Origin: Obrimoposthia wandeli
Taxonomy: Eukaryota
NCBI GenBank assembly: GCA_977020255.1
Contig: CDROCS010001369.1
Location: 248,001 to 312,000 of the forward strand
Direction of reading: 5' to 3'
Length of the DNA stretch: 64,000 nt
Position 1 is the stretch's first letter, and every line of letters starts with the position of its first letter. Shown one piece after another: positions 19,200 through 64,000 of this stretch. The notes below the pieces were generated by a model. That model saw only the letters and a program-made list of their open reading frames with translations, did not search any database and had not been told where the DNA came from. The translations under genes and the position numbers were made by a program.

Positions 19200-19251
19200 C
19201 TGAATATATACATATAAGATATTGATTACAATCTATTTTTTGTTAATCACG

Positions 19252-25900: not shown

Positions 25901-28900
25901 TTCGATCACCACATCTTCTTCTAGCTCCCACATTGCTTTTACTGTTGCTTTTTCGCGGTATTCATCATCTAGGAGTGTTGGACGCCAATTGGATTCTTTC
26001 ATGCCTTCTGCTTCTTCTCTTGGTGTCTCACTAACATTCTTCATCACTACACTTTCCCATCCTCATTCACGGTTTTACATATCTGTGCCTTTCCAATCGT
26101 TCCATTTCAATCACCTGGGTCTACTGACTGTGGTATCTATCTTGCACATTATGCCATCCACTTTGCAGGACAATCTTTTCTCGAGATCCATTCCACCAAT
26201 TGACGTGGGATCTTTAAAATGTGTTCTTCGAGAACTAGTTGAAATTATCCTGCTCAAACGTCTACAAACAGTCACTCCTAACTCACCACACCCCATTTTC
26301 ACTCAAACTCTTGAAGACCTTTCTGATAACCGCATCACTTCTGAAGCTTCACTGCTCAATATATCACGTCTTTTATCCTTTCTTTCACCTTCTCCATCTT
26401 TTCCGCATCGGACAACTACTGGAAAGAAGCCTAAGCCATGTTGCATTGTAGAGAAACATGAGAAACGAAACACTCAGTTTCCTACAAGATGCATATATAC
26501 ACGCTGCTAAAAAAACGGTTACCAACATCCTTCAGCCTTTGACTCCCACCATGTTCCTAAACATTGAAGATCTGATCTTGCATTTTACGAATGCACATCC
26601 ACCACAACCTGACTTCTCTCTCCTCCCATCTCTTCCACACCTTGCAGACTTTATTTCTGACACTCTCATCACAAAAGAAGAAATCATTACAGCTTTAGCT
26701 GCATGTGAATCTGCTTCTTCACCAGGTTCTTTTAACATTTATTTTAAATAATGGCAGACCATAGATCCACAATGCACTTTCCTACTTGCTCTCTTTAATC
26801 ACATTCTCATCAATCTCGAAATTCCTCCTCAATGGGCTTCCTTCAATACCATCCTCATCCTTAAACGCAACAAACTCTTCACCTCCACAAACATATCTTC
26901 CTGGCGTCACATTGTCACCACTGACTCCTCATACAGGCTCTTCACTCGCATCTTCAATGCCCGCCTTCTTAAATGGATTCGGGCTGGAAATCATATTAAT
27001 ATTGCTCAAAATGCACTTGGTCATCCTGATTCCTGCATTGAGAATGCCTTTAAGGCTCAGGCTCTCATCAATCACACCATCGCATCATCCACTCCCACTG
27101 AACTCCACACCTGTTTGCTAGACCTTGCTGATGCCTTTGGCCCAGTTCATCACTCTCATCTTTCACACGTTGTCTCTTATGGGTCTTTCTCCTCACACCA
27201 TTCTTCTTATTCAATCTCTCTGCACAAACTGCACCACTCAATACGATATGCTGACCCCCCATATTCCTGTTGTGAAGGTGGTCAAGCAAGGGTGCCCTCT
27301 GTCAATGATCATTTTCGTCTCGTCATTGACTTTCTTAATACGCTTCTGCTCACCAACTTTCCTGCTGTCACTCTTTATGGCCAATCACTTTCTGTGTTGG
27401 CCTATGCAGATGACATGGTTGTTTTTGCTCGCACAAACGCTCACTTGCAACTCTTCCTCAACAGCCTGGCAAAAGTTGCGACTGCTGCGCATCTCACCTT
27501 GCATCCTTCCAAATGTGGTTATCTTGTCACTTTCTCCCAACACCGTTCACATCCTCCTTCCACCACTTCTCAACCTTCTCTTCATCTTTACGACCAAGCC
27601 ATTCCTATGGTTTCCAGTGACTCTCTTTATATTTACCTTGGTACTTCATTCGGTCAGTGTAAAAAAGATGATCTTTCTTCACTACTCTCACAAGCACTTG
27701 AAGACTGCATCCACCCTTCAGTCTAACCTTCACCCAGCGCAAAAGATTCATGTCTTAAAAACCTTCATCTTCACCAGGTTTCCCTTCTACTTTCGCACAC
27801 ACACCATTAATAGGTATTTTCTTTCTCGTCCACACCCTCCAGGCTTCGACCAACGCCTTCGCTCGCTCCTTCGTGCTAGCTTCGAAGTCCACTTTAAGAC
27901 CCTCTGTTCCGTTCTTCTACACCTCCGCGGAACTCGGTGGTATTGGTATTATGCCACTTAATGCTGAATACATGTGTCAGTCCATCGTCTATGTGTTTCG
28001 CCTCTTCAACTCTCACAATAAGTCCACCAATGCAATAGCAGTAGCTGACCTTAAGAATGTCGTTTCCTCGTACTTTAACCTTCACAATGCACCTTCCATC
28101 ACGACTATTCTTGTTTGGTTAGCCTCCAAAGCAGACGTCAAGCATGACAAATAGGGGCGCTTCTCATCTGTCTGGGCTAGGTGTCGTAAGTCATATGCAA
28201 AACTGAGAGTATTGTTTGGTAACTGTACAACATTCACCATGAATAACACCTATTTTGATATTCACTTTCAATTTCAACAGAACACTTATACCTTTTCGAC
28301 GAATACCAAAAACGTTACCACATCAACACTCCATTACCTCATTCGCCTTTCATACCATCATGTCTGGAAGAACCAACCAGCCCAGGGTATCATCACACAT
28401 CCTCTTCGGTGTTCTGCTCCAACCAACAAAATTATCTTTCATACTGACTTGTCACCAAACGTCTTCTTCTTCCTGCTTCGAGCTAGAACTAACACCCTTC
28501 CATTCAACTACACTGGCAGTCAACCTTTAAGGGGTCTCTCCACTTCTTGCAGACGTTGTGGATTCAGTCACGAGTCTATGAAGCATGTCCTTAATGCCTG
28601 TTCGTTCAATAGTGCATCCATCACTCACAGACACAACGTCGTGCTCCAATTCCTTGCACGCAAACTGCAAGACATTGGTATTTTGGTTGATCCTGATAAG
28701 TCCAAACCATATCTTTAAAGGTCGTGCTGACATTCCATCAATTGTGCGCAACCAGCGATCCGATCTTGTCTTTAGGCATGCTAAGGGAAGTTTTGCCATA
28801 ATTTATGTGAAGAATCCGTTCGACGACCCAGCAAATTATCCGTCCATTGTTGCAAACAACCAAGACAAATACACAGCATATCCCCAACATCTTACCCACC

Positions 28901-30712
28901 TCAAACATGCCACTGTCTCTACACAAGCTTTCCTTGTCTCTTCTTTAGGTACTGCTTTAGAGCCCAATTTTAGCCTTCTTCAGTGGCTTGGGTTCTCTAA
29001 AAGGTTTCCCTTTCCATAGTTTTTCAGTGTTCTAAGTTGGCTGTCCAACAATCTCAACGCATTTTCATCAATCACATCACTTCCTTACTTCATCACGTTG
29101 CACCTCCAGCCTCATCATCTCTGGATCATATCACCTAGTTTTCGTTAGTCTTTATTCACACCACTCTCTCTACATGATCCAATGCTGTCTCTATTTCTCT
29201 TGTCCACTTTCTTGCACTCTGCGTTTTACTTCTCTTTTCTCGTCACTTGCTTTAATTTCTTTCCAGTCTCTTCATCTCTGGAACACATGTTTTCACAATT
29301 GCTTGCCATCGCAATCTTTTCTACACTCTTTCTACTGTATCACTTATCATTTACCTCTACTGCCTCTACATTACTTACCATAGCCAGCCCACTCTATTGC
29401 ACTGTGTCAAATTTTCTGTCACATTGCTCGCCTTCTCAGCTGGTTGCTGGTCCGCTTGATCCTGTGCACTGCTCTCCGTTTTTCATGCAGATTCTACGAA
29501 TTCCATTGCGTCCTGGATTTACCCATTGCAATTTACACTCCATCATGCCTGTCTTCAATCCTATCTGGATCTATCAGCAACTAGTCTGGCTGCACATCGT
29601 TCAATCTCTCACCCTCTCTTGGACTTGGACCCCTTTCTACTTGGCATAGGACTCGCCATCCTGTACCTCCTATGGAATGTCCTTTCATAATTTTGGTTCC
29701 CAACCTGCGCTGATTTTCATGAACACTCTAGTTACTCTCTCATTGTTTTTTTATTTGTTTCTTCCTGTGTCAACTTCATTCTCTCCTCTACGAGATACAA
29801 ATGGGTCACCCGACCGTTTTTACCAAGCGGTGCCCATTAATGGCACATTTGTTATTCAATATGTTATTATTATTATAATTGTAAATTATTGTAAAGTATT
29901 GAAGAGACTAATATTGTGAATTATTGTAAACTATAGAATTGAAATTTCGTGAATTATTGAATTTAATTGAATCGTAAATTAATTAAGTGTAAGATGTGAA
30001 AGCATTGCTGTAACGTTACTATTTGAATAGTTATTGCTCTGAATATAACATGAGTTGCGTATCCATTTAAATTCAAATACTGACTTACATAGTTTAGAAA
30101 AAAACACTATCTAAGGAGTTCTGTGAGAAAGGAGTAATATTAGTGAAAGGTCATCCAAATTCCCGGCGTGTTAGAAGCGGTGTAGTTGTTGTTAGACGTC
30201 TTACCCATTTGGTTGTTAGACATTTTTAATTGTGTTTTCTTAATAAATTGTTTCCTAAAAACCGACGAGTTGATCTATAAGTCACCAACCGTATCGACGT
30301 AAACCCCACTAATATATAGGTTGGCCGAGGGACAACCACGTTACGGTATTCTAAGCGTTGTTGTATTTGAGGATTGTTGTGTCCCAATATTACCGGAGGA
30401 GTATCGTTAGCGTCGCTTGGCTACAGCTGTTTTCCATATATTCGGTCTAGGTTGCTAACCAGATATTTCCTTACTTCAACGGCTAATCCCTAGGTCCACA
30501 TAACACCGCATTAGTTTTGGGACCCTACCAGTTATTTTGTGAACACACCACAACACAATAGTACAAAAATCCTTCAGATTTGAGACTAAAATTAAGTAAG
30601 ATAAACACAGGTAGGCCACATCCATCTGTAAGCCCTATTGCTACAGAACTCACGTTGGGGCCCTCCATACGAGGATCTACTTGAATAAAGAGTTTCAAAT
30701 AGAAACCCCAAC
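22997..30712 (+). mobile_element. LTR (~1.7 kb net) split by a non-LTR insertion
   Basis: Starts TGTTAAAATTAGG and ends agaactcacgttggggccctcc...tagaaacccaACA, matching the end of the 50020-52684 LTR. A 33-bp array (gtgaattatcgtaaagtattgaagtgtaatatt) resumes on both sides of the insertion. Confidence 0.8.
23835..29873 (+). mobile_element. R2-superfamily (RLE) non-LTR retrotransposon, NeSL/R5/Utopia-like, decayed
   Basis: RT: ITKEEI..SSPGSFNIYF, WRHIV..YRLFTRIFNARL, LDLADAFGPVHH, KQGCPLS, LAYADDM, YLG. Then GGIGI, RARTNTLP, CCHC finger CRRCG..ESMKHVLNAC, RHNVVL, and RLE relic RSDLV..IIYVKNPF..KY. Ends in a (TAT)n tail; candidate TSD TATAA (23830-23834 / 29874-29878). The 5' boundary assumes 23835-24800 belongs to the element. 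Confidence 0.85.
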
Positions 30713-36750: not shown

Positions 36751-38184
36751 ATATTATTAGTTTAATATTATATGTGAATTTGTTCCTAGTTTAATAATAA
36801 ATTTATAATATACGCATAAGATTATCAAATATTTATATAAAGTTTTAATAAATAATGTTAATATATTTAAACTTTTGTTTATTTAGATATTTTTTTTTTA
36901 ATTCCGGTTTTAAAAAAATATTTAAATCAATCGAAGAGTTTAGACTAACAATAATTTGTTGGTATAAAGTGTAAATATATGTCAACTATACAAAACCTAA
37001 AATAATTCAAACGCAATGATAAATATTTTTTTTTATTAATTTTAACATAAATAGTTGACAGTGAAAACTCGAAATCTGTTTGAAAGATTTGATTGTTTTC
37101 TTAACAAAACATGATAAATAATGTTTAAAATATAATTGTAATCGTTAAATTTTAATTTTTAGAAATTTATTTAAAATTTACAATGAACATTTTAACGATT
37201 TTTATATTGTATTAACTAAATTTATATCTTTTATAATATATAGTTAATGGAGCATAACTTTTTTGGTTTTAATTGTCAACTTAGAAAATTTATTTAAAAA
37301 AAAATTAAATAACATAAGCAGAATTAATTCATTAAAGAGGATATATAAATTAATTAAAGTATATTTATTTGAACAGATGTTTCTTGTACTTTAAATTACG
37401 TACAGATTTTATTAGAAATTTTATATGTATTTAATTTTGTGATTCGTAAAAATAATAAAGGTGATTTGATAAATAATATGACAAATTATGAATACGACAT
37501 CTTTTACTAAAATATAATATAATAAGAATATAATTATAAAAAAATATGAACTTCAGGTACAGTTTGATTGATAACTTTTTTTGAAAACTTTCAATATAAT
37601 TGTATTATATATATTTAATTTTATAAGGTTTTTTAAGTTTTTTATTAAATAATTTTTAATATATATTTTTGACTACAAATAATATATTTTTAAAAAAAAT
37701 CAATAATTTTTAATAGGTTTATAAGTTCTGTTAAAATTTTAAATTTTAAATAAGAAATTCAAGTAAAAAAACGTTAAAAAGAAATTTTATTAAAATTTTC
37801 AAAAAGTTATTAAATTTATGATAAAATCAGAAATGTTACATTAAAATAGAACATTAATGAAGTAATTTAGTTGTATTCGTGATATATGTTTAAAAACAGG
37901 TTAAATAAAAATAGTTTTGGGTATACAGTAAAACTTAAGTAAAATATATGAAAAATTTCATAAATTTTGTTTGAAGATGAAAATTCATTTTTATTCGATA
38001 TTAATTAAAAATATTATATTAAAATATATTTGTTATTATAAGTAATTTTTTAATTTAACAAAAAATTCACATGTAAATTGTTGATACAGATTAAATTATT
38101 TCTTTATTGTGTTTGATGTCAATTTTAGAGATTTATTTTAGATTTAAATTTAGACTTTCGTATTTTATTTTGCACATTTTACAA

Positions 38185-38494
38185 ATGGATTTTATAATAA
38201 ATATGGATATGTTGATTAGTTCAAAACTTGCAATTTATGCCAAAAAAGAAACAGTTGGTCACAAAGTTTGCAAGATATTTGAATACATGTGCCACGGAGT
38301 TCCATGGATAATATTAGCTCTTTTAAAAATATTTCAAACCGAACATAATTTTTGGATTTTCTTTTTCATTGGTTTACTTACTGATATGGTCATTGTATTT
38401 TTTGCAAAAATAATATTTCGACGGAAGAGGCCATCAGTAAATAATGACGATATGCTTATTACAGTAGCCGTTGATCACTTCAGTTTTCCGTCAG
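38185..38494 (+). CDS. PLPP6: Host PAP2-family phospholipid phosphatase (PLPP6/7-like), coding exon 1
   Basis: MDFIINMD..HGVPW..KIIFRRKRP (motif C1)..DHFSFPSG, ending at a phase-1 donor G|GTAAAT. Confidence 0.85.
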
Positions 38495-39319
38495 GTAAAT
38501 GAAATTTATGTTATTTTCTTTTATGGTTGTCTCAAAACATATTTACAATATATTTCTTCATTATACTTAACATTGACACAATATTCATACTAATCAAAGA
38601 ATCGGGGATATGCTACCATTTTGTGCTTTTAAAAATAACTTCAATAGTCCATGGTCCCTGAAACGAAGCTTAAGTTCATTTTTGTACATTTATAAGGTGA
38701 ATTTAATTTCTTTTACTTGCTTTATTTATGACTAAAGAAATTTCTTGAACATGCTTCGGGTATGAAAACTTGCGCATAGGAGAATGTCCCCAAAATAGTG
38801 ACTATCCTTTTGTATCATTTCTGCTCAAGGCATCTCACGCTGTTCTTTCAAAACAATTCTCATTTTTTGTGAATGATCACGAACTCATCAAAGATGTATC
38901 ACTTTCTTCAAGTCTGGCCATGTTCCTTAACTCTCCTTGGAAGTGTCGATTTTGCTATTCTATGTATGCTGCATCACACCACGACTGACATTTATATACA
39001 GCATTAGAGATACGAGATTTCAGCATATAATAGTTAGAAATCTTATTTGTTGTAAAAACAATTATATTTTGATAAAATACACAGTTTTCAAAACATTTTC
39101 CTGTACCACAATGTCTCAGATTTAATAATAACAAAAATATATTTAATATAGAGCTATTTTATCTAATAAATCTGCCATGTATGACTCAAAGGTGCTTCCA
39201 GTTTTTCGCTATTCGTAATATTTTCTGAGGTATATTGAATAAATGTTTGGTTTACAAGCAATAACACAAATAAACAATCCCAAAACAAATATTAAATAAT
39301 TAGTTGGACCTCGATATAT

Positions 39320-47642: not shown

Positions 47643-50525
47643 GCTCTGTGTTTATTTGTTGTGAATTTACCTTTCCATTAAATCACTACCTTATCTTGAA
47701 GGTCTTTCAAACCAGCTGGAGTATCCATTGTGTGCTTGTCACAAAACACCGAACATGGCCTTGCTATCTTAAACTCATTGAAAGCGGCTATATGATCCCA
47801 TTATCTAAATGTTACGAAATTTTGAAACTAAGCTTGAATCGTGTTTACAAGTATATTTGTAAAAGTAAGGAAAATATAATTTTTACTACACTCGCTAAAT
47901 CACTGTATAAAACACAAATGGCTTTAAAATATATAAACATGCTATAGTTAAAGTCTAATAACTCAAAAGCATTTCCTGTTTTCCATTTTCTTTTTTTAAA
48001 TTTTCAGAATACTAGTGTCTTCAGCTACTTAATTTTTTTAAACAGTGTTATATTAGCCGGCAGATTGTTATAAAGATTCGGATCATAAATTTCACATATT
48101 CCATCACTATGTTATCTGAGAATTTAATGATTAATATGCAGTCATCATCGTTGCTCCTAATATGCATATGCATGTTCACTGCACAATGTTGAAGAAGACT
48201 AAAAAAGTATTTTGACTTTTGTGACAGAATAAATGTTTGGTAATAAGTAGGATATTGAATTCAATTCTGACATTGATCGAAAGCCAATGAAGTTTTATTA
48301 AATTTTCACTTGTACTAACACTTTTTTTGAATTGAATACAATTCTAACGAATTGAATTTTTTACAAGAGATTTAATTTAACAGGCCGAAAATTTGATAGA
48401 TGATGCAGTAATTCCTTCTGTGTTTTATCCTACTTCGCGGGCAAATTTCCCGACGCAAAGCAGAATATAAAAGCCGGCCATCGCTGTCTTAAAAAAATGC
48501 CGTTCGATTGTTGTCACCTTGATTAATTAATTTAAACTTTAAATTGGAATATTTAAATTCTTAAAACATACATATATATCATTTATTTGAGGTTACAATT
48601 GAAAGATAGAAACGAAGAGAAAGATATATGTAAAACAAAACTCATGAGAAGGCGTAATTTAGTAATATAAGCATTTTGGGCAGACAAAGAGGTTTAAATA
48701 AAGCTTGAGAGTTATTAGGACTATTATGCAAAGGCAGATGAAGATCAAAACTATTGCAAATAAATATGGAGTTGGAAAATGAAAACTGGAAGAAGAATTA
48801 AACCAATATTTTCATATATTGAAATGAGTTAATCTTAATCGGGTTACATCAATATTACTATCCTTGTTAATAGATGGAATTGATACACACATACTTTTTG
48901 AAGAGTATTGTTTATCGTCTTAAGATAATTTCCTTTTGGATGTTGCAGTAAGTTGATATTTTAAAGTACAAGGTAATTTACTAATTAATTATGAAAATTT
49001 ATCAATGTAATATTATGGTTCGTCAGTAATAAATAAGCAGATAGTAGTAGTTTATAACTTTTAAAATCTGAAATTCATTTCTTAAATTAATAAGATATTT
49101 TTAATCAAATTATCTTTTATCTGTTATCTTTTATACAAGTTTATCAGTATTAAATATATTTTATATCAATATTATAACAGTATATTGGAAGTAGTACGTA
49201 TATTAGTAAACATAATATCAGCAACTTTTATGTCTTTAAAAATAGTATTTAAGTATATGAAATTTTCACACTAGAAAAAAATACTCATAAAAGCTATGCT
49301 TATATGAAATTATTTTAACTCCATTTCTATTTTCATTAATATATACATTACACACATGTTTGACACTGAATATCCAATGATTATGTATCTATGTAATTTA
49401 GTAGTCATCCTATACTATAACTCGACTTATCTTACATTTTAATTGAAATTATTACTGATCTTAATCATTCAATAATTGCATGAGTTTTTCAGTTTCAATG
49501 ATCCATAAATAAACGCTCATCCAATTAAAAATCTTTATCAAAACCCTTAAAGCATTTGTTCACTTGATAAAATTCTGATTTAGCGCATGCATTCAACACG
49601 TTATAGTATTTATCATCCAAACTTACACTACATCTTTAATATGATTCAATGTTCATACTTCTATCTTGAAATTGAGATAAATGGTCTCTGGTTATTATTG
49701 AGAAAAGTATTATCTTCGCATCTATGTACTTGATGAAGAAATTTCCTATACTTGCATTTTCGTCAATAATTTTTAAAAGCTGATAATATTGTATGTTTAT
49801 TAATTTATTTACTATTGCTAATAACTGAATCAATTTAAATGAGAACATGAATTTTGAAATTTTGTATTTGTAAAATATTTAAATGGTTCTCTTTTAGTAG
49901 TCATGATATTCCTAGTTGTAAGTAATTATGTAGTAGGATTAATATTTTCCATATAAATATTTCTGATTTGGTTCATTAGCATATAAATGGCTTCTTGAAC
50001 CAATATAGATACTTTCTCTTGTTAAGATTAGGTTTTGAGTAAAATTAAAAATAAATAATTGTTTTATAGTAAAATGAAAATTCTTGAAAGCAAGGTTGAG
50101 AATTAAATAAATTTTAATTTTAAAATCAAGTTAAATTATTAGGACTAAATTAGGAATAAATATTAAGAGGACCACGAAGGTCGTGTATAATGTGTTGTAT
50201 ATAAGGTTAAAAGTAACTTGTAAAAGTGCAAAAAAATAAATAGCACTGTCAGCAAAAAAGAAGCTAATTAAGAAAAGAGAAAAAGAAAATTAATCAAGGA
50301 AACAACAAAGAAGATTGACAGTCAGCAAAGTAGGCATATTATTTTTTAGCCACTATTTACTGACGTTCAAGGGCCAGGTGCAACTTGCCTCAATTGACTA
50401 TATAAGTCTGCACAAGAACCCCATTTTTGAGATCAACCCGGAACGCCAATACAGGACAGCGCTTCCCAGTCACGGTGAGAAATTATAAAACTAGACGATT
50501 AAGTTATTGATTTTTCCAGAGAAAG

Positions 50526-51126
50526 TCAGCTCACAAGAACGATATTCTTATTTAATCGCCGTCAGCACCAAGAACGATATTCTTATTTAATCGCCGTCAG
50601 CACCAAGAACGATATTCTTATTTAATCGCCGTCAGCACCAAGAACGATATTCTTATTTAATCGCCGTCAGCACCATGAACGATATTCTTATTTAATCGCC
50701 GTCAGCACCAAGAACGATATTCTTAATTGATCGCCGTCAGCACCAAGAACGATATTCTTATTTAATCGCCGTCAGCACCAAGAACGATATTCTTATTTAA
50801 TCGCCGTCAGCACCAAGAACGATATTCTTATTTAATCGCCGTCAGCACCAAGAACGATATTCTTATTTAATCGCAGTCAGCACCAAGAACGATATTCTTA
50901 TTTAATCGCCGTCAGCACCAAGAACGATATTCTTAATTGATCGCCGTCAGCCCCAAGAACGATATTCTTATTTGATCGCCGTCAGCACCAAGAACGATAT
51001 TCTTATTTGATCGCCGACAGCACCAAGAACGATATTCTCATTTGATCGCCGTCAGCACCCAAGAACGATAGTCCTATTCTGATCGCCGTCAGCACACAAA
51101 AACAATATTCCTGTTCTGATCGCCGT
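50526..51126. repeat. 35-bp tandem array (~17 copies) in LTR
   Basis: Unit gtcagcaccaagaacgatattcttatttaatcgcc, no spacers. Confidence 0.95.
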
Positions 51127-51190
51127 GGACTCACGAACAACATCCAGAGAAATTAAAGGTATAATTACCGTAAATCGTAAAATTACCCAT

Positions 51191-52280
51191 ATTGTTAAAA
51201 TATAGTTGTTTACATTGACCCTATTTTGAAAGAATATTTAACTTTAAATTGATTATTGTTAAAATATAGTTGTTCACATTGACCCTATTTTGAAAGGATA
51301 TTTAACTTTAAATTGATTGTTGTTAAAATATAGTTGTTTACATTGACCCTATTTTGAAAGGATATTTAACTTTAAATTGATTGTTGTTAAAATATAGTTG
51401 TTCACATTGACCCTATTTTGAAAAGATATTTAACTTTAAATTGATTATTGTTAAAATATAGTTGTTCACATTGACCCTATTTTTGAAAAGATATTTAACT
51501 TTAAATTGATTATTGTTAAAATATAGTTGTTCACATTGACCCTATTTTGAAAAGATATTTAACTTTAAATTGATTATTGTTAAAATATAGTTGTTCACAT
51601 TGACCCTATTTTGAAAAAAATATTTAACTTTAAATTGATTATTGTTAAAATATAGTTGTTCACATTGACCCTATTTTGAAAAGATATTTAACTTTAAATT
51701 GATTATTGTTAAAATATAGTTGTTCACATTGACCCTATTTTGAAAAGATATTTAACTTTAAATTGATTATTGTTAAAATATAGTTGTTCACATTGACCCT
51801 ATTTTGAAAAGATATTTAACTTTAAATTGATTATTGTTAAAATATAGTTGTTCACATTGACCCTATTTTGAAAAGATATTTAACTTTAAATTGATTATTG
51901 TTAAAATATAGTTGTTCACATTGACCCTATTTTGAAAAGATATTTAACTTTAAATTGATTATTGTTAAAATATAGTTGTTCACATTGACCCTATTTTGAA
52001 AAGATATTTAACTTTAAATTGATTATTGTTAAAATATAGTTGTTCACATTGACCCTATTTTGAAAGGATATTTAACTTTAAATTGATTATTGTTAAAATA
52101 TAGTTGTTCACATTGACCCTATTTTGAAAAGATATTCTAATTTCAATTGATTACTGTTAAAATATAGTTGTTTACATTGACCCTACTTTGAAAAGATATT
52201 CAAATTTCAATTGATTATTGTTAAAATATAGTTGTTTACGTTGACCCTATTTTGAAAAGATATTCAAATTTCAATTGATT
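51191..52280. repeat. 64-bp tandem array (~17 copies) in LTR
   Basis: Unit attgttaaaatatagttgttcacattgaccctattttgaaaagatatttaactttaaattgatt. Confidence 0.95.
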
Positions 52281-52692
52281 TGAAAAATCTATAATTTGAG
52301 CTTATTCGCGAGTTAGAGAAACGACTCTAAAATCTCGATTACCCTTAACTTAAAATCGATACGTGGTTCATCCCCACTTGTGTAGAGACTTACAGAAGTC
52401 TTAGGAATTTTTACTATAACTTTTTAGAAGATACGTGCGTAAACGTATTGTTGTGTTTTAGTCTAGTGTGTTACCAATAAACGATTTCCTACATTAGAGA
52501 ACGTTGTTTAAACCCTTCAGATTAAGAGACGTCAAAACAAACACCTTCAGATAAGTAATTGAGACAGGCAACCATAGCACTAAGTAGGCCACGACCAACT
52601 TTAAGACCTGCTTCTATTAGAACTCACGTTGGGGCCCTCCGCACACAAGAGGATCTATACAAGTCTCGTATAGAAACCGCAACATATTAAAG

Positions 52693-52711
52693 TGGTGCCC
52701 CGAGTGAGGAT
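52693..52711 (+). promoter_or_regulatory. Primer-binding site, elongator tRNA-Met-type
   Basis: TGGTGCCCCGAGTGAGGAT is complementary to the animal elongator tRNA-Met 3' end (..ATCCTCAC(A/T)CGGGGCA-CCA). Confidence 0.8.
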
Positions 52712-52734
52712 AGCTCGTCGGACACAGCGAATTC

Positions 52735-53240
52735 ACAGAGAATAAGTTTCAGCAGAAGAATATAAGTAAATTGAGAATAAGTTTCAGCAGAAGAATATAA
52801 GTAAATTGAGAATAAGTTTCAGAAAAATTGAGAATAAGTTTCAGCAGAAGAATATAAGTAAATTGAGAATAAGTTTCAGCAGAAGAATATAAGTAATTGA
52901 GAATAAGTTTCAGACAAATTGAGAATAAGTTTCAAAAGAAGAGATAAGCAAATTGAGAATAAGTTTCAGAAGAAGATATAAGTAAATTGAGATAAGTTTT
53001 TGAATAAGTTGAGAAATCGAGTAGATTTGTTCCTCGAAGTTAAGAATTTGATAAGTTTTGAGAAATCGAGTAGATTTGTTCCTCGAAGTTAAGAATTTGA
53101 TAAGTTTTGAGAAATTGAGTAGATTGTTCCTCGCGTTAAGAATTTGGTAGAGTTTGTAAAATCGAGTGGATTTGTTCCTCGAGTTCAGTAAATTTGATAA
53201 AGTTGAGAATCGAGTGGATTGTTACTCGAAGTAATTAATT
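52735..53240. repeat. Leader tandem repeats (~35-bp, then ~49-bp units)
   Basis: gagaataagtttcagcagaagaatataagtaaatt and gagaaatcgagtagatttgttcctcgaagttaagaatttgataagtttt units. Confidence 0.85.
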
Positions 53241-53391
53241 GAATAGGTTAAGTCGAGAGACGTGTCCTCGAACTAATTAAAGAGATAAGAAATCGTAAAA
53301 TAAGAAATGTGAAATAAGATAAAATAATAAGTAAATTGATATCGTAAACGAATACATAATTGATAAGACAACGGATAATAGAAAAGGACCC

Positions 53392-55242
53392 GTGTATAAT
53401 ACTATAAGACAAAGTCAGATTCCCCAGGAAGAGATAAATAATAATAAAGTTAACCGAATTGAACAGATTCCCCAAACAGATAACAAAGTAATAGAACAGA
53501 CTAGAGTCGAAGAAAACGTATCAGACAGAGACGTAAATCAATCAGCAGTTTCAACTGACAGTTTTGAGCTGACTGAGTTGTTTGGTGAAATAAACCCAGA
53601 AGAAATTGATAATATTGAAGTTCAAAACCCAGAAGAATTTGAAATTGCCAATCAAGTAGTGATTGAGGAAGTTCAAGCGAATAATATTGAAGAAATAGTT
53701 GAGGAGGATATAATTGAAAATATGGCTCACCCAGGAGCTCAAGCAGATAATAATGCAGGAAATAATGTAGGAGAAATGAATGCAGAACAGTTGGCACAAG
53801 CCTTAAATGCGACGTTGAGACCCAACTTTTCAGGATCATTGCAAGTTACAAAGTTTAAAGGAGATGAGGAAAGTATTTGTGACTTCCTCGCAGAATATTC
53901 GAGTTGTGCAGATGTTCAAGGATGGAACGATAAAGAAAAATGTGTCCGTGTACAGGCACACTTAACCGGATTAGCACTTGAAGTGTATAAACATTTGACA
54001 GAAGCAGAACGTTTAGATTGGGAAACGTTGGAAAATGCTTTTATTGGAAAATTGGTATTGGGAGACTTAGAGAGAATCATGAGAGAACGGAAACAGAAAC
54101 ATGACGAAGGCGTGAATGAATACGCGTATGTTTTGAGAACCTTGGCCGCAAGAGCGTACCCAAGAAGAATAATGAGAAATCTAGAAGGTAACCCTGTAGC
54201 TCCAGAAGCACAAGCAGCGGAAAATAACCGGAACCAAAATGAAATGGCAGAAGTTTTGTTAGACATATTTAGAGGAGGATTGAAAAAAGATATTAAAGTG
54301 TTATTAGCAGTATCAGACACAAATGATTTTGATAACGCCGTACGAAAGGCGAGAGAAATTGAGAAAAATATAAAAAATAACGCAGCATTGGCAATTTATT
54401 CAATGACCGCAGGTGATGACGATAAGACAAAGGTATTTGTGAATAAAACAGAACCGAGTAATTTTCAGAATCGAAATTATGGACAAAATAAGTTTGAAAA
54501 AGTAGATGAATCCAGTAACGGAAACAGAGATAATTTCCGAAGTAGGAATCGAGATGATTCGAGAGGTAGAAATAATAGTGAGTCTTGGAACAGGAATCGA
54601 GATGATTCAAGAGGTAGAAATAGTAATGATTCGTGGAATAGAAATAGAGATGATTCCAGGAATAGATTTAATAGAGATAATTCAGGAAATCGCCAACCTT
54701 GGAGAGGAGACGATAGGAATTACAACGCAAACAGAGGAGAGCGAAGTGACTCTCGATTTGGAAATAATAAAGGAAGTAGTGACGGAAGATTCAATAATCG
54801 AGGAAGCGGTTTTGAATCGAATTTCCGAAGAAATGATTTTAGAGGACGATATGATAACAGACAGAATAGTCGTCGAGTACAGTTCGAAGATGAACAAAAT
54901 AAGATAGATATTCGAGGGAGAATAATGTGTTACACGTGTAAACAAATAGGTCACTATTCAAGAGATTGTACGAGAAGTAAAGAGTTCGGAACTAACAGAT
55001 TTGGAAATAATAATTTCGGTAATAATAATTTTAGAAATAATTATAGAGGATATAATTCACCCCCGCCATGGAATAGAGGTGGTGGATATACTCCACAGCA
55101 ATGGAGACCGAATAATCAGTATACAGATAGACAACAGTCACCAGGTAGATACAATAACTATGCAGACAGACAGCAAGGAGCTGAGAGATACAATAATTAC
55201 GTAGGACAGCAAGGAGCTGAGAGATATAAAAAATTCCGGTAG
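53392..55242 (+). CDS. gag: Gag (capsid-like domain + RG/N/D-rich repeats + CCHC knuckle)
   Basis: FKGDEESICDFL..GWNDKEK..LTGLALEVY, RKQKHDEGVNEYAYVLRTLA, FRGGLKKDI, and knuckle CYTCKQIGHYSRDC (54928-54969). First ATG at 53719. Confidence 0.92.
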   Translation: MYNTIRQSQIPQEEINNNKVNRIEQIPQTDNKVIEQTRVEENVSDRDVNQSAVSTDSFELTELFGEINPEEIDNIEVQNPEEFEIANQVVIEEVQANNIEEIVEEDIIENMAHPGAQADNNAGNNVGEMNAEQLAQALNATLRPNFSGSLQVTKFKGDEESICDFLAEYSSCADVQGWNDKEKCVRVQAHLTGLALEVYKHLTEAERLDWETLENAFIGKLVLGDLERIMRERKQKHDEGVNEYAYVLRTLAARAYPRRIMRNLEGNPVAPEAQAAENNRNQNEMAEVLLDIFRGGLKKDIKVLLAVSDTNDFDNAVRKAREIEKNIKNNAALAIYSMTAGDDDKTKVFVNKTEPSNFQNRNYGQNKFEKVDESSNGNRDNFRSRNRDDSRGRNNSESWNRNRDDSRGRNSNDSWNRNRDDSRNRFNRDNSGNRQPWRGDDRNYNANRGERSDSRFGNNKGSSDGRFNNRGSGFESNFRRNDFRGRYDNRQNSRRVQFEDEQNKIDIRGRIMCYTCKQIGHYSRDCTRSKEFGTNRFGNNNFGNNNFRNNYRGYNSPPPWNRGGGYTPQQWRPNNQYTDRQQSPGRYNNYADRQQGAERYNNYVGQQGAERYKKFR

Positions 55243-55843: not shown

Positions 55844-56065
55844 ATGAAAATTTCGCTTCGATTAATTTCCGGACAGATTATACATGAAAAACTTAACGTG
55901 TATCAAACAATGAAAACGATTCGAAAAAAGTTGGCAGAGAAACTTGAAATTGATGGAATGAATATGTTGTTCCATTATAAAGGGAGATCACTAGATGATG
56001 AGGACGTACCAGTCCAGTGTGGATATCCAATAGGAAATGAATTAGAGAAAAAATTGATGTCATCA
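55844..56065 (+). other. SUMO/ubiquitin-like domain in polyprotein
   Basis: MKISLRLISGQIIHEKL..LFHYKGRSLDDEDVPVQ..(shift)KIDV aligns by eye with SUMO INLKV..DGS..IRFRFDGQPINETDTPAQ..TIDV. Confidence 0.6.
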
Positions 56066-56574
56066 CTGTAGGACGCCAAGAGTTAGTAGATAATGAAGGA
56101 TTAACGGAGATATTAAACTCTGCGTTAGAAATGATAAAAACGCCTATAGAAATTTTAGACAGTTCAAGCGAAAGCGGAGATAACGATGTAGCTGAAGCTT
56201 GGAACAAGACATCCACACCAGAACCGTACGTAGCTGAATTACAAGACGTGAATTTAGAAAATGAGTTGACGACTCCAGTGGTCGAAGTACCACCAGAACC
56301 AGAGATAATTCAAATCAGACAAGATGAAGTCACGGATACAGCTAACCAAGTGAGACAAAACGAAAACGTAAACCAACTAGGAGGAGAAGACGAAATCTCC
56401 GAAATTGTAGATTTGGATTCACCAATTTGGCATGCTGCATACAAAGATAGACAAGCAGAGCCGATGATGCGACAAAATGAAGAGATTGGCCATGAAGAAG
56501 GACCAAGTCAAGAGATACAGTATAATGGTGAACCGTATGATCCAGGAGAGAATCAAACTGAGTATCAGTATTTT

Positions 56575-56601: not shown

Positions 56602-56757
56602 GACGGAAGTATATTACGAAATGTTTTAACTGCACCACAAACTGATGAGGAGAGACATCTAAGCATTGGACAGTTAGCAGCGTCTTTAGAGCAGTATAGT
56701 GCAGAGAGGAATGAAGATATCAGAGGTGATATGAATTCGGAAACTCCAAGTAGTAAA

Positions 56758-57144
56758 GATATACTTACGGGAATTCTCAGGCAAGTGAAGCCGAAGTTGT
56801 TCAAAATGTACAAAGATGAAACAACCGATATAACAGACAATTTGACTAAAGCAGTTAGATCACAAATGTCTGCAGTAAAGAGAATGACTGCGAATCATGT
56901 ATACCATGCATCAATAGATAGATTTTACGACGGTGAAGTTTTAGCGAGATTGTGTGGAAACCATACTACAAATAAAAAGTTAATTACAGCGATCACATAC
57001 CTATGTTTCCAATTGACGGAACGAACGAGCCAACCTCACGAAGTCAAACAAGGAATAAATGAAGCGATGTATTTGATCGAGAATGTGTTACAAAGACGAA
57101 TTGACGAAAACGGAGGTTGGGCAAAATTAAGTGACTACGCTAAA
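56758..57144 (+). other. Bcl-2-like domain
   Basis: BH3-like ILRQ..KMYK..DITDNL, degenerate BH1 TNKKLITAITY, and BH2 VLQRRIDENGGWAKL (cf. Bcl-xL HLEPWIQENGGWDTF). Confidence 0.65.
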
Positions 57145-57246
57145 ACCATTGTGGAAATGAATGAAGACGATGACGAACAATGTCATGAGAATCGTCAAAG
57201 AGAAAATAAACAATACCGTCCAAAAGAAAGAAACAATCAACCAAAT

Positions 57247-59100
57247 ATGTCCACAACAATGATGATGATGATGTTAGTAATGTTCATGGGAATGCAACAG
57301 GCATCAGGATTGATAGCATACGACTGTAGCATACCAAAGATGGGACAAAAGTATTCACTGCTTGACAGCGAAGACTGTCCAGAATCACAACCGTCAAAAT
57401 TATAAGTTAAAGGTGTTGAAAACTACTTTGTGTATCAGGATGTTGATAAAGTACAAGTAGAAGTGAAAGAATGTTCAATCCATTCAAGTTATCACGAATT
57501 CTATTGTGGCCATAGAAGTTTTATGTCGGAAATCACACCTACCACACCGTACAAAGCACATAGGGTTTTGCCGAGAGATTGCGAAGACGCATTTCGAACA
57601 GGAACAATAGAAGTAGACAAGAATTACAAACCTGATGTAAAAATTGGAGTGAGACGATACGAAACAGTCACGAGAGTAGGACAACGATGGGCTGATGGAT
57701 CTTGTGACGGAGGAACAAAAAACGTACGTGGAACCAAAGTAACAGAGTTAGAAATGGACGTAACTTACAAAATTGAATTAAAAACATGGACTGCCAATTT
57801 TGATAAAAAGACACAACGAATGATGAAGTATCCAGAATGTAAAATGACAGATGAATCTTGTTTTACAGGCGAATCCACAATTGTGTATAACGTGAATCCG
57901 AAACAATGCTCTTTAGTATTTTTGAAAGAGATTAGCTTTAATAAAATAAAAGGATTCTTGTATAATAAAGATGGAGAAGGGTTCCTGTATAATAAAAAAG
58001 GAAAAGGATTGCTCAATGAAACAAGACCAATTCCTATGACAAAGACACCTACACTGTTAATGGCAACATCAACAGAAGAAGGATTGATATTTATTAAAAA
58101 GAGAAACAAAGCGCGATGCGGAATGACTGTTAGTACTACAAACTATCCTGGAATAGTTTTGTCCAAAGAAGCAATAGCATTGGCAGAAACCAAGCTAAAA
58201 CCTAGAGATATGCAGCTACACACGTATTTTATTAATAAAATTGATTTCTTATATCATAAAGGATTGATGCAAATGGAACAGTTATATCGGATGATGATCG
58301 AGAGAGATTGCCAGCTAAACAAAGAGATCGTAAGAACAAAGTTAGCATTAGCTATTACGAATCCAGACATGGTAGCACCATTATTACCCTTGGATGAAGG
58401 AGTATTTGCTAAAACCATGGGAGAAGTATTGTATACTTACAAATGTAATAAAGTAGAAGTACAGTTGAGAAAAACAGACTGATGTACGAGTGAATTGGCA
58501 GTAACGTATAATTTAAAAGAACTCTTTGTTGAACCAATCACGAGAATGATACTTCCAAAAGACACTCCAACTAAAGAAATCAGCTGCTCTAATATAATGG
58601 CACCTGAATATCAGATGACGAATGATCTATGGATAACGTTACCTGACCGAAAGCCAACGAAAACCCCAGCGATGATAAAAATGACGAATCTTAAAGGTAA
58701 AATGAAATTCGAAGCGGTAGAAAATATGGAGAACGCAGGATTGTACAATGAAAAAGACTTAAAAGCGGCATGGAACGAAATAATGTTTCCAGTAAAATGA
58801 GCCAGAGTACTTACGGAGATGGTACATCGAGCATTACCGCCAGGAGCTAGATATGCGAATTTCGATATGTTGTTATCGCCAAGTCATTTCAAGGAAGCAG
58901 CACATCAGACACTTAGAAAGATGTGGGGGAAATTCCTTGCTTTAGGACAATTATTTTCGGGTATCATAGGTATTTATGTTATAATTAAATTTGTGCAGGT
59001 AATTATAGCCCAGGTGTTATCTACGTATAGTCTATACAGGATAACCGGAATCACCTGGCAACTTATAATTGGATGTTTTCCATTTTTAGCGAAATATCTA
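57247..59100 (+). pseudogene. env: Envelope: chuvirus-like (class III-type) fusion glycoprotein with internal signal peptide; 3 in-frame stops
   Basis: Hydrophobic MMMMMLVMFMG..ASG|LIAYDC..SLLDSEDC, ECSI..YCGHRS, DGSCDG, INKIDFL..LY..DCQL..LAITNPD, GEVLYTYKC..VEV..CTSELAVT..LFVEPITRMI, GLY..DL..IMFP, MWGKF..GQLFSGIIGIYVIIK. This is the conserved motif string of Chuviridae G. Confidence 0.85.
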
Positions 59101-59460
59101 ATGCACCATCATCACGAGAACGAGTTGCGAGCCCTCAAGAAGGAGCAACATCAAACGAGAACCATGATGCGAGAACCAAGAAACTATCGAGACGACAACG
59201 ACGACGATAATGATAGCCCAGGAGTATATGCAAAGATACCAGGAAAACCAAAGATTCCGTTACCAGACAAGGAAGAAGTGGCGTTAAACCTATATCCAAT
59301 GAAGGAACTAAAGGAAGAGAAGGAAAAGTTCAAGAGAGGCATTTTAATGATAAGATGGCCTAAAGTGAGCTACAGTGAGATTCCACAAGCAGAGGAAAAA
59401 GACAAAAACGATAATTCCAGAAGAATTCTGAAGTCTAGGATATCAAATGAGAATCCAAAT

Positions 59461-59770
59461 GCTCTACCACAAGTAGCAGTAACATTGAACGGAAGAGAAT
59501 ATCTTGCCGAAGTTGATACTGGATCTGCAGTATCAGTACTTCGTAAAGAAATCTTGTCATCTAAAGAATTAAGAGAAGTATGTCCTAGAAAACAGACATT
59601 TGTTAACGTAAATGGTACAGATGTAGTGTCAGAAGGAACACTGAAATGTTCATTGAATATCGATGGAAGAGCATTGCAGTTAAATGCTAGAATATTCACA
59701 GATTGCGGTAGTCCAGTCATGATTGGGATGGACGTAATACGGATGTTTGAAGGAATAATTATATTACCAA
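59461..59770 (+). other. Aspartic protease 1 (retropepsin-like)
   Basis: VTLNGREYLAEVDTGSAVSVL (DTG 59515-59523) and C-terminal VMIGMDVI. Confidence 0.85.
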
Positions 59771-60000
59771 ACAACAAGAGTTATAAGAATGACAGTTCAG
59801 TGAGAGAGATAAAAATGTTGAGAGGACCTATAGTCGAAAAGGAAAAATACACTACGTTCCGTATGGGAAATTCGTATCAAGACAAAAAACAGGAAGCGCT
59901 AGTAAAGTCGATACTTCACTACAAAAATGTAAACCTCGGACCACAAGATATGACGAGGAGGAAAATAACATATGTGAATCTGTCAGAAAAGGATCCCATG

Positions 60001-60993
60001 AGATTCGAGAAAAATAGACGAAAAATATTAGAATTGTACTATTCAAAAGAAATTGCACGTAAAATGGCAAGATCAGGCTTAGAAATGCTAAACGCGACAA
60101 GTAGTTATGGTCATGAGGAAGTCGTACGATGCGTATGGTGTAGAGTAAAGTTTAGAGAGTGGGAAAAGAATGAAAACCCAATGAGACGTCATAAAAGAGA
60201 TGCACCAAATTGTCCATTTCTTTTGAAACTGAAAACTTCAAACGTACCAGAAATCCAAAAGGGAAAAGCGCCCGATTTCGATTACAGTGACGAGTTTCTA
60301 AAAGGAGAATCAGCTCTAATAGTAGGTAGAGTAATAACAAATAGCCGAATTGAAGATATATTCGAAGTTATGCGAGAAGTAAACGAATGTGACGAACAAT
60401 ATCGAGAATTAACTTTCGAAGATCCAAGACTTAAAAAATTGGCAAAAAAGGGACTTTTTGCTATAAAAAAGGATGGTAAAGACGTGATTAAATGCCACAA
60501 GTGTAAAAAAGAACGAATTATCGATAGATATACTCTTGAGCTACCTAAGAAAACCTTACATCATGAATTTTGCGAGTTTTGTATGTTAAAAAACAAAATA
60601 AAGCAAAAAGAACAGAAAACCGAATGTATAATCGAATACCAAATCACACGGAAAGAGATTTTGGCTCAACAAGACACACCGGTAATGTCATTCGTGAGAA
60701 GGTTATATCCAAAAGAAGCAGAAAGAATCAGAGATTTGGTAGAATTAAAAATAAAAACTACGCGAAACGGATACGGATCAATTTTTGAATTACTAAAAGA
60801 TAAAGATGACAGTACAATTGAAACAAAAGAGAAAGAGTACATAAATGAACTAGAATACGTACTAGAAGATCCGGAATGCGCAGTTTGCATGGTCAACAAA
60901 ATATAAGTTGCCTTTTTACCATGCGGACATGTAAGAACATGTCGGAGATGTGCGAAGGAAATGGTATCATGTCCGATTTGTCGAAGAATAATA
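60001..60993 (+). other. Inhibitor-of-apoptosis module: BIR + degenerate BIR + C3HC4 RING
   Basis: BIR1 MARSG..VRCVWC-x16-H-x6-CPFL with exact spacing (C60130, C60139, H60190, C60211). BIR2 EQYRELTF..LAKKGLF..DVIKCHKC. RING CAVCMVNKI*VAFLPCGHVRTCRRCAKEMVSCPICR (60877-60993; one stop). Confidence 0.92.
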
Positions 60994-61107
60994 GATCGAC
61001 AAGTGAGAAATATTAGATTTCACTATCCAAACAAAGGAAGTGGACCGACAGAGTGTAATAATTCAATAAATACAATATACCACATGGGAAACATAAATGG
61101 AGCACAG

Positions 61108-63599
61108 CGACCAGCAGCTATCATTAGAGTGAATAATTTAAGAGTAAAAGCCTTAATTGATACAGGTGCTGTAGCTTCGATAGTAAGTGAAGATTGTTTG
61201 ACAGAGGAACAGAAACGAACAATGGCAGAACCAGATGAATTCTTGGTATCGGTCAACGGAGACCCTGTAAAAGTGACGGGAATATTACCATGTACATTTA
61301 TAATTGGACGTAATACGATCACTATACCATTTAGAATCATGAAAGAATGTCCTGAACCTACAATTTTAGGAATGGATGTACTATCACAACTTAAAGGGAT
61401 AAGTATTGATTTACAAGATCCAAGATTGAAGGATAGCACATCAAACAGACAAATAAACCAAATTGATGTAATTATAGAAAATCCTATAAAAATCGGTAAA
61501 AGATCGCAATTTCTCATTCAAGGTCACACTTTATCAGAAGATAAAGGACCAGTTGTGTTCGAACCATCACGAGATTTCATAGAGAAATACGAATTACCAG
61601 TTGTGAGTACAGTATGCCTGATTGAAAACCACAAAATACCAGTTAGACTGATGAATACAACCAACAATGACATCCTATTATACAGAGGAATGAGGTTGGG
61701 AAAGATAGCACAGATGGAGAATCCCACTGTGTGTGCTATGAAACTCGATAAAGATACGAATGATTACGAAGAAATAGTAATCCAATCAGAAAGACTGACA
61801 ACTAGAGAAAAGAAACAATTACTTGATCTAATACATAAATTTCCGAAAGTAATTGCAAAAAATCCATATGACATAGGAGAAACACCTGTCATAAAACATA
61901 CAATACCACTGACAGAAGACAAAGTAGTCAGAAGAAGACCATATCGAGTACCATTACAGTTACAAGATGAAGTAAAAAGTCAGATTGAAGATATGTCTCA
62001 AACAGGAGTAATTAGACCGAGTTTTTCACCATTCTCAGCACCTGTGGTGTTGGTAAAAAAGAAGGATGGGAAAATGAGATTCTGTATAGATTTCAGAGAA
62101 CTGAACAAGATCACAAGAAAAGATGTGTATCCATTACCTAGAATCGAAGAGATGCTCGATAAATTTGGTAATTCAGATTATTTTACGACATTAGATTTGC
62201 AGAGTGGATACTGGCAAATCGAGATAGAGGAAGAGGATAAACACAAAACAGCCTTTTCCTGCGGAGATGGATTGTACGGATGCGAAAAGATGCCATTCGG
62301 ACTGACAGGAGCTCCAGCAACATTTCAGCGTTGCATGAATTTTGTACTCGCATCGTGTGCAAACACGATGGTTTATATCGATGACATAATAATATTTTCT
62401 AAAACGTTCGAAGAACATTTAAAATATCTTGAAGTTGTATTTAAAAGACTGGAAAACGCTAAATTAAAAGTTAAACCTACAAAATGCGAATGGGCTAAAG
62501 AGCGAGTAACATTTTTAGGACATATAGTATCGAAAGAAGGCATTCGACCTGATCCAGCAAAGATCGAGAAAGTAAAAGCACATTTAGCGCCAAAGACTGT
62601 TAAGGAAATACAGAGTTTTTTAGGTCTTGCGAACTATTATAGACGATTTGTTGAACATTTTTCAGATATAGCAACACCATTGAGAAAGTTGACGAGGAAA
62701 GATGAGAAGTTCATATGGGAGAAGAAGCACAACAAGCGTTCGAACATTTAAAAGAAATACTAATAAAAGCACCAATATTAGCGTTTCCAGATATAAACCG
62801 ACAATTCATACTAATGACAGATGCAAGTAACTATGCTGTAGGAGCAGTATTGGGACAAGAGGATGACGAAGGAAGAGAACACGTCATCGCGTATGCGAGT
62901 AGAGGATTAAACAGAGCCGAAAGAGGATACTCTGTTATTGAAAAGGAATGTCTAGCCATAGTGTATTCATGTAGACAGTACAGACACTACTTGCTAGGAC
63001 AAAAAGTATTCCTGTATACAGATCACAAACCACTACAGTTCTTATATAAACATAGAGATGAGATGAGTAGATTAAACAGATGGTTTCTAAAATTGGCCGA
63101 ATTCGATCTAGAAATCCATTATAGAACCGGAAAGTCGAATGGTAACGCAGATTGTTTGTCGAGATTGACAAATGTAGACGAGAAAGGAAACATAATTCCA
63201 GAAGAAGATGAAACCAACGACCAAAAAGGAGAAGCAAATCTACTAACGATTTTGCTGAAGACGGGTAAAATAGACAAAGAGATCATCAAAGAACAGAAAG
63301 AAGATGAAGAATTGAGTCTAATCAAAGAACTGTTGGTGAAAGGAGATCTAAACGATGAAATGACGAAAAAATACTCGATAAAAGAAGGAATCTTGTATAT
63401 TGTCAACAATGTCGGAAAGATAGTAGTAGTAATTCCGAAGTCATTGAAGACAGCAGTAATGATCCAGTACCACGATGGAACCTTAGGAGGACATCTGTCA
63501 GGGCGAAAGACAATAGCCAGAATCAAAGAGAAGTACCATTGGGATGGTATGGAAGACGACATAAAACAATGGTACTATGGAACTAAATGGTATTACTAA
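61108..63599 (+). pseudogene. pol: Pol: protease 2, RT, RNase H, N-terminal integrase; one frameshift, integrase core missing
   Basis: ALIDTGA (61159), RFCIDFRELN, LDLQSGYWQI, MPFGLTGAPATFQ, YIDD (62374). Shift at ~62718, then TDASNYAVGAVL, YASR, EKECLAIV, TDHKPL, NADCLSR, YHDGTLGGH..YHWDGM, after which homology breaks at ~63570. Confidence 0.95.
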
Positions 63600-64000
63600 T
63601 AGAATTAAATAGAATTATTACTAATAGTACTAAATAGAACTAAATACTAATGGTACTAAAAGAACTATGACAGTACTGAAGCAGGACTAGCCAGTCAGGA
63701 AGAAAAGGAACCGGCCTGTGGTCACATACTGCACGGTACACCAAAAAGACTCAAACAAGAATACCACGATGTAATAATGGTATTACGTAATTCACATGGG
63801 AAAAGAGACCTAATGAGAGTTCATTTAATCGACGCAGACACTGAAAAGATAATTTGTCAGATGGACACCAAATACTTCGACGGAAAGACAATTGTATGTT
63901 GTATACCGGAATCTCACCGGTTAGACACAGATCAAACGGAAGTATCTGTAAGGTTGAGCGTAATAAAAGGATTTCATTCGCCAAACCAACCGGAAGTTAC

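Follow-up and report, generated by a model that had tools for sequence, protein, structure and literature searches.

The closest described systems are the giant Gypsy elements Burro1/GYPSM1 and Burro-2 to -4 of the planarian Schmidtea mediterranea; in the account given by Arkhipova and Yushenova (2019, PMC6431247), the Burro/GYPSM1 polyprotein of planarians spans 4,873-5,140 aa and combines ubiquitin/SUMO-like, BCL2-like, BIR, MATH, and ankyrin domains with an in-frame Env. BURRO1 is transcribed and PIWI-controlled according to PMC8532177, and the Burro1 B-IAP, consisting of BIR and RING, is stated to protect stem cells from caspase-mediated apoptosis (PMC13465017, citing Lee et al. 2026, doi 10.1016/j.devcel.2026.03.001). 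Adintoviruses/Polintons are described as carriers of IAP and Bcl2 homologues (Starrett et al. 2021, PMC8502044), and errantiviruses with a GAG-ENV-POL order are recorded in Platyhelminthes, Nematoda, and Bryozoa (PMC13524379).

The window analyzed here is a stretch of 64,000 nucleotides from Obrimoposthia wandeli (contig CDROCS010001369.1, positions 248,001 to 312,000 of the forward strand) that contains an IAP cassette within a retroelement. A retrotransposon with an apoptosis inhibitor has already been published for Burro1, and the present finding mostly confirms the known kind in another family. The literature on Burro1/GYPSM1 reportedly also includes Jurka 2007 and Grohme et al. 2018. The cassette is a real, selected IAP cargo residing in a dead copy of its element. 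It probably represents B-IAP-type cargo in a Ty3/Gypsy element that is Burro-like and carries an Env; this cargo would be derived from a host IAP, needed by the family, and freed as an anti-apoptotic E3. The genome makes the origin of such cargo testable in one place, as an intron-bearing host gene and Maverick copies occur side by side. The release of a ligase with a C-terminal RING from the middle of a polyprotein can be tested on a candidate cut and a pair of proteases, all of them conserved, and mutualism can be tested against conflict on a fast-changing BIR1 that lies beside a near-frozen Env and RT.

Architecture of the retroelement

The host of the cassette is a high-copy, recently inserted Ty3/Gypsy (Metaviridae) LTR element of ∼22 kb, as identified by the order PR-RT-RH-IN, two LTRs, a primer site, and a target duplication. 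The 5′ LTR (TG...CA) occupies 50020..52684 on the plus strand, as do all features described below for this element within the window. The 3′ LTR is located ∼6.4-8.3 kb past the window end, and the target duplication is 4 bp long. The unique parts of the two LTRs differ at 6/481 and 4/395 bases, a divergence low enough to indicate that the insertion is recent. Tandem arrays of 35-bp and 64-bp units lie within the LTR (50430-52420), and their length is unequal between the LTRs. A primer-binding-site-like stretch that starts with TGG was seen in the sequence at 52693..52710, and the leader at 52700-53210 contains 35-bp and 49-bp repeats.

The coding order is Gag, a weak ubiquitin-like domain, a weak Bcl-2-like domain, Env, PR1, IAP, PR2, a conserved spacer, RT, RNase H, integrase, and two dual-specificity phosphatases. 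Gag carries a CCHC zinc knuckle (53335..55242; PF00098 E=8.7e-6). The ubiquitin/SUMO-like domain (55856..56023; PF00240 E=0.0023) and the candidate Bcl-2-like domain (56750..57150; PF00452 E=0.064) are both below the cut-off. Env is a fusion glycoprotein of the Monjiviricetes type (57256..59199; PF24664 best E=8.7e-37) placed in frame between Gag and protease, with a membrane anchor at ∼58948-59028, just upstream of PR1. The spacer between PR2 and RT spans 135 conserved codons with an omega of 0.08; a dUTPase-like region would be expected here in a Burro-like element, and the spacer has no Pfam match. It is followed by the RT core (62053..62529; PF00078 E=6.7e-38), RNase H (62718..63104; PF17917 E=1.7e-39), and the integrase zinc finger (63432..63661), after which ∼1.4 kb of the integrase core is lost. 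Past the window end (L031:660-4997, L031:6631-7179), the integrase is followed by two dual-specificity phosphatase domains, several hundred unassigned residues, and, immediately ahead of the 3′ LTR, a RING in a frame of its own.

The recently inserted copy in the window is dead. Its Env contains three in-frame stops, and frame changes occur near 55205-55242, 56041-56071, and 62706-62751; the RNase H of this copy comes after a frame change. In some other copies, open frames run through the cassette for up to 5,461 codons, which fits a single polyprotein.

The Bcl-2-like candidate was examined by structure as well as by sequence. A single-sequence model (pLDDT 40) aligns with Bcl-2-family chains over 111-123 of 160 residues (Z 4.8-5.5), and shorter matches to unrelated helices outscore these chains. 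A PDB sequence search gave no match for the candidate, and an Atlas search led to unrelated clusters only. In the region 56750-57320, the candidate runs straight into the Env signal sequence, which, speculatively, could double as the membrane anchor of the candidate.

The element very likely belongs to the Burro group, a placement made by comparing its architecture, rather than its sequence, with the published descriptions; by the same architecture, the host is probably a triclad flatworm. It has the single very long polyprotein and the Env in frame between Gag and protease. Among the accessory domains of Burro, the BIR is clear and the two sub-threshold domains, ubiquitin-like and Bcl-2-like, occur in the published order. 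In common with the Burro elements, one polyprotein of ∼5,000 aa contains Gag, Env before the protease, BIR (with RING), RT, RH, and IN, with candidate ubiquitin/SUMO-like and BCL2-like domains between Gag and Env, and the element has long LTRs with tandem repeats and a very high copy number. The open frames of up to 5,461 codons compare with 4,873-5,140 aa for the Burro polyproteins and count in favor of the placement. One CCHC knuckle match is present here compared with two or three in Burro, and two proteases are present where the text of PMC6431247 names one, although its figure may show more. The element also differs from Burro in the two DSP phosphatases that follow its integrase and in the additional RING frame ahead of the 3′ LTR. 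No Pfam match to MATH or ankyrin domains was obtained in the frames scanned, and with phosphatases in their place the element is not Burro1 proper. The position of Env between Gag and Pol and its class III-like fusion protein are shared with the GAG-ENV-POL errantiviruses, whereas the passages on these elements in PMC13524379 mention neither an IAP cargo nor a second protease.

Composition, conservation, and selection of the IAP cassette

The earlier note had described a complete BIR-BIR-RING cassette at 60001-60993 sandwiched between two retroviral proteases. The proteases are present as claimed: PR1 (59467..59766, DTG at 59515) and PR2 (61105..61398, DTG at 61159) are both recognized by Pfam as aspartic protease domains and lie in the same frame. 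In our literature search, such a twin-protease bracket was undescribed; the primary Burro papers may already show it. The cassette bounds proved too short, as free-standing relatives align to ∼59893-61023 of the window and the captured unit has about that extent by homology. It begins with a fast-evolving leader (59893..60000), for which the IAPs of the host and of the Mavericks have a homologous N-terminus. The description as complete fails for the window copy, in which a TAA at 60904-60906 cuts the RING, and this copy is itself unable to make a whole RING.

BIR1 (60001..60219) combines canonical zinc ligands with a variable surface. The ligands at 60130/60139/60190/60211 have exactly the spacing C-x2-C-x16-H-x6-C that the earlier note had read, and the domain matches Pfam BIR with E=1.4e-13. 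The BIR2-like domain (60394..60573) has the ligand spacing C-x2-C-x18-H-x3-C and scores 17.1 bits against Pfam BIR (E=0.0084), below the cut-off of 22.9. Of the two motifs previously assigned to BIR2, LAxxG is present, whereas the other reads E-x-x-R-x-x-T-F and not ExxRLxTF. The odd spacing is shared with the host gene, indicating that BIR2 was inherited in this form and has not decayed. In a predicted model of the cassette, the BIR2 region has BIR-like secondary structure at pLDDT 82-88; the mean for the whole model is 53 and the RING is below 50. A Foldseek search with this model matched BIRs of XIAP, cIAP, and NAIP, in which the matching repeat is unspecified.

BIR2 is followed by a helical region (60589..60876), located where IAPs carry their UBA-like part. 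The IAP-type RING (60877..60993) comes next and is matched by PF13920 (E=5.9e-8) in its C-terminal piece. Its tail (60994..61029) ends in a conserved Tyr-Pro bond, a candidate cleavage site. The solved chains nearest to the cassette are the BIRs of NAIP and DIAP1 and the RINGs of cIAP/XIAP. With BIR1 and the RING both recovered by Pfam, a C3HC4 RING closest to those of cIAP/XIAP, and a layout far beyond chance, the identity as an IAP is supported, and an IAP-type RING holds for the family though not for the interrupted window copy. The combination of a BIR zinc finger with a C-terminal C3HC4 RING is that of metazoan IAPs (cIAP1/2, XIAP, DIAP1) and baculovirus IAPs, from which the cassette differs by the shifted H/C spacing in BIR2 and by being embedded in a polyprotein.

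The family comprises at least 177 distinct copies, and those sampled are the best-scoring, closest relatives of the window copy, so that derivatives lacking the cassette may be under-counted. All 97 scored cassette matches are 96-100% identical. Among non-self copies picked by RT DNA, 28/29 carry BIR2 and RING, and 28/29 picked by PR1 DNA reach the RING, one with an internal deletion. Where both protease Asp codons are covered, 140/144 copies retain most of the cassette, in a set that was mostly found with cassette queries. The cassette is thus fixed in the family, as judged from the RT-picked copies. It is free of stops and frameshifts in 81/111 copies and in 14/26 of the PR1-picked set. The RING stop of the window copy occurs in 9/170 copies, and seven tested carriers differ by 0.0297, the same as random copies. 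Spread of the stop within a single lineage was rejected on this basis; the stop has therefore arisen repeatedly.

Individual catalytic and structural residues are similarly retained. The active-site Asp is kept in 146/147 copies of PR1 and 170/173 of PR2. The zinc ligands of BIR1 are kept in 148/151, 151/151, 150/150, and 150/150 copies and those of BIR2 in 173/175, 169/173, 172/174, and 169/172. Each of the 16 zinc ligands of the IAP is retained in at least 98% of copies. Conservation extends to the Tyr-Pro after the RING tail (Tyr 166/169, Pro 168/170) and to a Leu-Pro after PR1 (Leu 147/147, Pro 139/146).

Selection on the cassette was assessed in 140 copies by comparing singletons with shared variants, defined by four or more carriers, as private changes made after insertion are expected to be neutral. 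Over the whole cassette, N:S is 265:103 in singletons and 54:83 in shared variants (p=3e-11). The respective values are 145:71 and 1:45 for RT, 54:21 and 1:19 for PR1, 58:37 and 2:11 for PR2, 21:15 and 2:10 for the RING, 82:35 and 5:22 for the helical region, and 62:18 and 8:17 for BIR2. The 29 copies picked by PR1 form a set without cassette bias; here, N:S is 105:49 against 39:62 in variants with two or more carriers (p=5e-6), and single domains are mostly not significant. The RING, helical region, BIR2, PR1, and PR2 are under purifying selection. BIR1 lacks a purifying signal (52:20 against 28:15, p=0.53), which counts against the functional reading.

A second measure, omega, was taken from the net divergence between two subfamilies of 91 and 31 copies, with 23 intermediate copies and short copies set aside. 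Omega is 0.01 for Env and RT and 0.22 (0.12-0.38) for the 268 IAP codons after BIR1. It rises to 1.36 (0.76-2.93) for the 106 codons of leader and BIR1, which differ from the rest of the IAP by Fisher p=6e-4. Thirty positions of leader and BIR1 distinguish the two subfamilies, with zinc ligands nearly invariant. The local dS of this segment is raised as well (0.11 vs 0.05). With dS doubled and an interval of 0.76-2.93, positive selection on BIR1 is not established; the fast divergence may reflect diversifying selection, relaxed constraint, or an older recombined segment. A fast-changing BIR1 in a cargo IAP was undescribed in our literature search, a point that the primary Burro papers may cover.

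The earlier note had raised a passive one-off capture, to be recognized by neutral dN/dS across copies or by absence of the cassette from most members of the family. What was found is a near-universal cassette among the sampled copies, with private changes that look neutral and shared changes depleted of amino-acid changes, and functional retention is supported accordingly. It is highly improbable that the cassette is a passenger kept open only as Pol follows in the same frame. Such a passenger would stay stop-free, and the omega near or above 1 of leader and BIR1 agrees with it; the constraint on the remaining 268 codons and the retention of all 16 ligands, as in the host gene, speak against it. 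Together with the N:S of shared variants, these observations largely refute passive carriage, and the cassette is best regarded as selected cargo.

Relatives of the cassette in the host genome

A RING search of the genome led to a host IAP gene on the minus strand of contig C2454 (about 230260-245330), where five exon matches extend over about 15 kb with splice-site dinucleotides at most exon edges. A DNA probe of one exon has a single match in the genome, and the gene, which contains introns, is apparently single-copy. It shares with the retroelement IAP the leader, the BIR2 spacing, and the tail, in addition to all 16 zinc ligands, despite an identity of 31%.

A BIR search of the genome reached other high-copy families of the IAP, in which it is a free-standing gene of 341 or 301 codons whose frame ends shortly past the RING. 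Both are carried by Maverick/Polinton-type elements, with loci seen on contigs C777, C609, C3067, and C2440. The 301-aa family is assigned to this class by an ATPase, rve with chromo, a weak jelly-roll match, and motifs A and B of polymerase B; its inverted ends lie about 15 kb apart, and its IAP has lost most of BIR2. The 341-aa family has a packaging ATPase, rve, and 4-kb inverted arms that are 99.7-99.9% identical, and a motif scan found no polymerase motif in it. Each arm carries a copy of the IAP, of a TBP-like frame, and of a dual-specificity phosphatase that is 32% identical to that of the retroelement. Two IAP-bearing Maverick families in one genome recall the adintovirus/Polinton IAPs of PMC8502044; the difference from that account is that the Maverick IAPs here share a clade with the cargo of a retrotransposon and with a host gene, all within the same genome.

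A 20-row tree unites the host gene, the retroelement IAPs, and the Maverick IAPs with six database relatives in a single clade (100/100), separate from nine other IAPs. A 107-row RING tree built by a quick method agrees, with 99 for the core. The grouping led us to drop a baculovirus-like donor, as the cassette groups with the host gene in trees that, to our knowledge, contain no baculovirus IAP; of the host and viral sources proposed earlier, a host-lineage clade was found and the donor is not baculovirus-like. The donor lineage is likely a lineage-specific host IAP that is also carried by Mavericks. Judging by exon structure, the mobile versions are intronless copies, and that of the retroelement would come from a spliced mRNA copy.

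Within the clade, the retroelement IAP is 35-36% identical to the Maverick IAPs, closer than to the host gene, and the two mobile groups join with 76/86. The alternative groupings are unrejected (retroelement with host p-AU 0.052; Maverick with host p-AU 0.34), and on these alignments the tree cannot decide whether the retroelement took its IAP from the host or from a Maverick.

Relatives were also sought outside the genome. A word-index protein search, which is weak evidence, returned none among 740 candidates for cassette relatives of similar length and none among 694 for the Maverick IAPs. In the same kind of search, equally weak as evidence, longer polyproteins with a PR1-IAP-PR2 layout yielded one unrelated mollusc IAP among 7,527 candidates, leaving the layout untraced outside this genome. 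No relative turned up in the viral and metagenome contigs that were scanned. An IAP clade common to a Burro-like element, Mavericks, and an intron-bearing host gene was undescribed in our literature search, and the primary papers may differ on this point.

Nearer the other end of the window, the interval 15678-19683 is probably the relic of a similar Maverick. It contains a TBP-like frame (PF00352 E=6e-9) and decayed frames that resemble Maverick polymerase B by motif and have no Pfam match.

Proposed release and function

The favored reading, host-derived cargo that is freed as an active ligase, can be set out as a series of steps. A spliced mRNA copy of the lineage-specific host IAP would have been taken up whole into the polyprotein between two proteases. 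The family needs it, as its cassette is fixed and the RING, the helical region, and BIR2 evolve under purifying selection. Env, threaded into the ER in mid-polyprotein, would make PR1-IAP-PR2-RT-RH-IN its cytoplasmic tail. Retroviral proteases prefer hydrophobic-Pro bonds and the RING of IAPs needs a free tail, which is the basis of the proposed cuts: Leu-Pro after PR1 (59764-59769) and Tyr-Pro after the RING tail (61024-61029). A literature search on this background returned no relevant paper. The freed IAP of ∼420 residues would end where its free-standing relatives end. It could dimerize via the RING, bind caspases or IAP antagonists via the BIRs, and ubiquitylate them, with the outcome that a cell transcribing the element stays alive.

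The position of the second cut can be compared directly with the relatives. The Tyr-Pro bond is 15 residues past the last RING cysteine, and the relatives end 13-25 residues past it. One database relative has a tail of 25 residues, so a tail extension may be tolerated and release may be unnecessary. Release of the IAP by PR1 and PR2 is plausible. It is distinctly unlikely that PR2 is a by-product of capture through recombination, retained solely to detach Pol from the tail of Env, with IAP release incidental or absent. PR1 and PR2 align gap-free over 99 residues at 29% identity, as expected of an old duplication, and the Env anchor just upstream of PR1 would provide PR1 with a task in which the IAP has no part. 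The conservation of the RING tail with Tyr-Pro (omega 0.25) and of the Leu-Pro after PR1 in most copies speaks against this reading.

By analogy with Burro1, an anti-apoptotic role of the cassette is likely, and it is not a new idea. The IAP might instead serve chiefly as a decoy or ubiquitin ligase, either in signaling (antiviral or stress) or in particle assembly, perhaps while tethered in processing intermediates, and not as a caspase brake. The conserved parts, RING and helical region, alongside a variable BIR1 would suit such a role, as would the ubiquitin-like domain, the two dual-specificity phosphatases, and the second RING frame, a toolkit of signaling type. A role in cell death is indicated by the Bcl-2-like candidate, which belongs to the same polyprotein, and by the function reported for the Burro1 B-IAP, and the BIR zinc ligands are nearly invariant, which together make the signaling role unlikely.

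The favored reading also has a more elaborate form, which we consider rather unlikely. The retroelement would have acquired its IAP from a Maverick and not from the host, possibly along with the phosphatase; the IAP would be freed in the twin-protease bracket, perhaps by a tethered PR1-PR2 pair, without particle assembly; and BIR1 would be engaged in an arms race with caspases or IAP antagonists of the host. If true, the 'mutualistic' B-IAP would stem from gene traffic between viruses and from continuing conflict rather than from quiet domestication, and a single host IAP would serve two unrelated classes of endogenous virus-like elements as common cargo within one genome.

Several other features were seen in the window and the genome. 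Fragments at 8065-10389, 11901-12512, and 25050-29019 resemble, by eye, a further Gypsy gag-pol, a transposase of Tc1/mariner, and a non-LTR retrotransposon that has RT and endonuclease. A frame on the minus strand (38095-38502) resembles, by motif, an exon of a PAP2-type lipid phosphatase and is probably part of a host gene. Elsewhere in the genome (L156, L157), translations contain BIR exons of the host that were labeled by eye as survivin-like and BIRC6-like.
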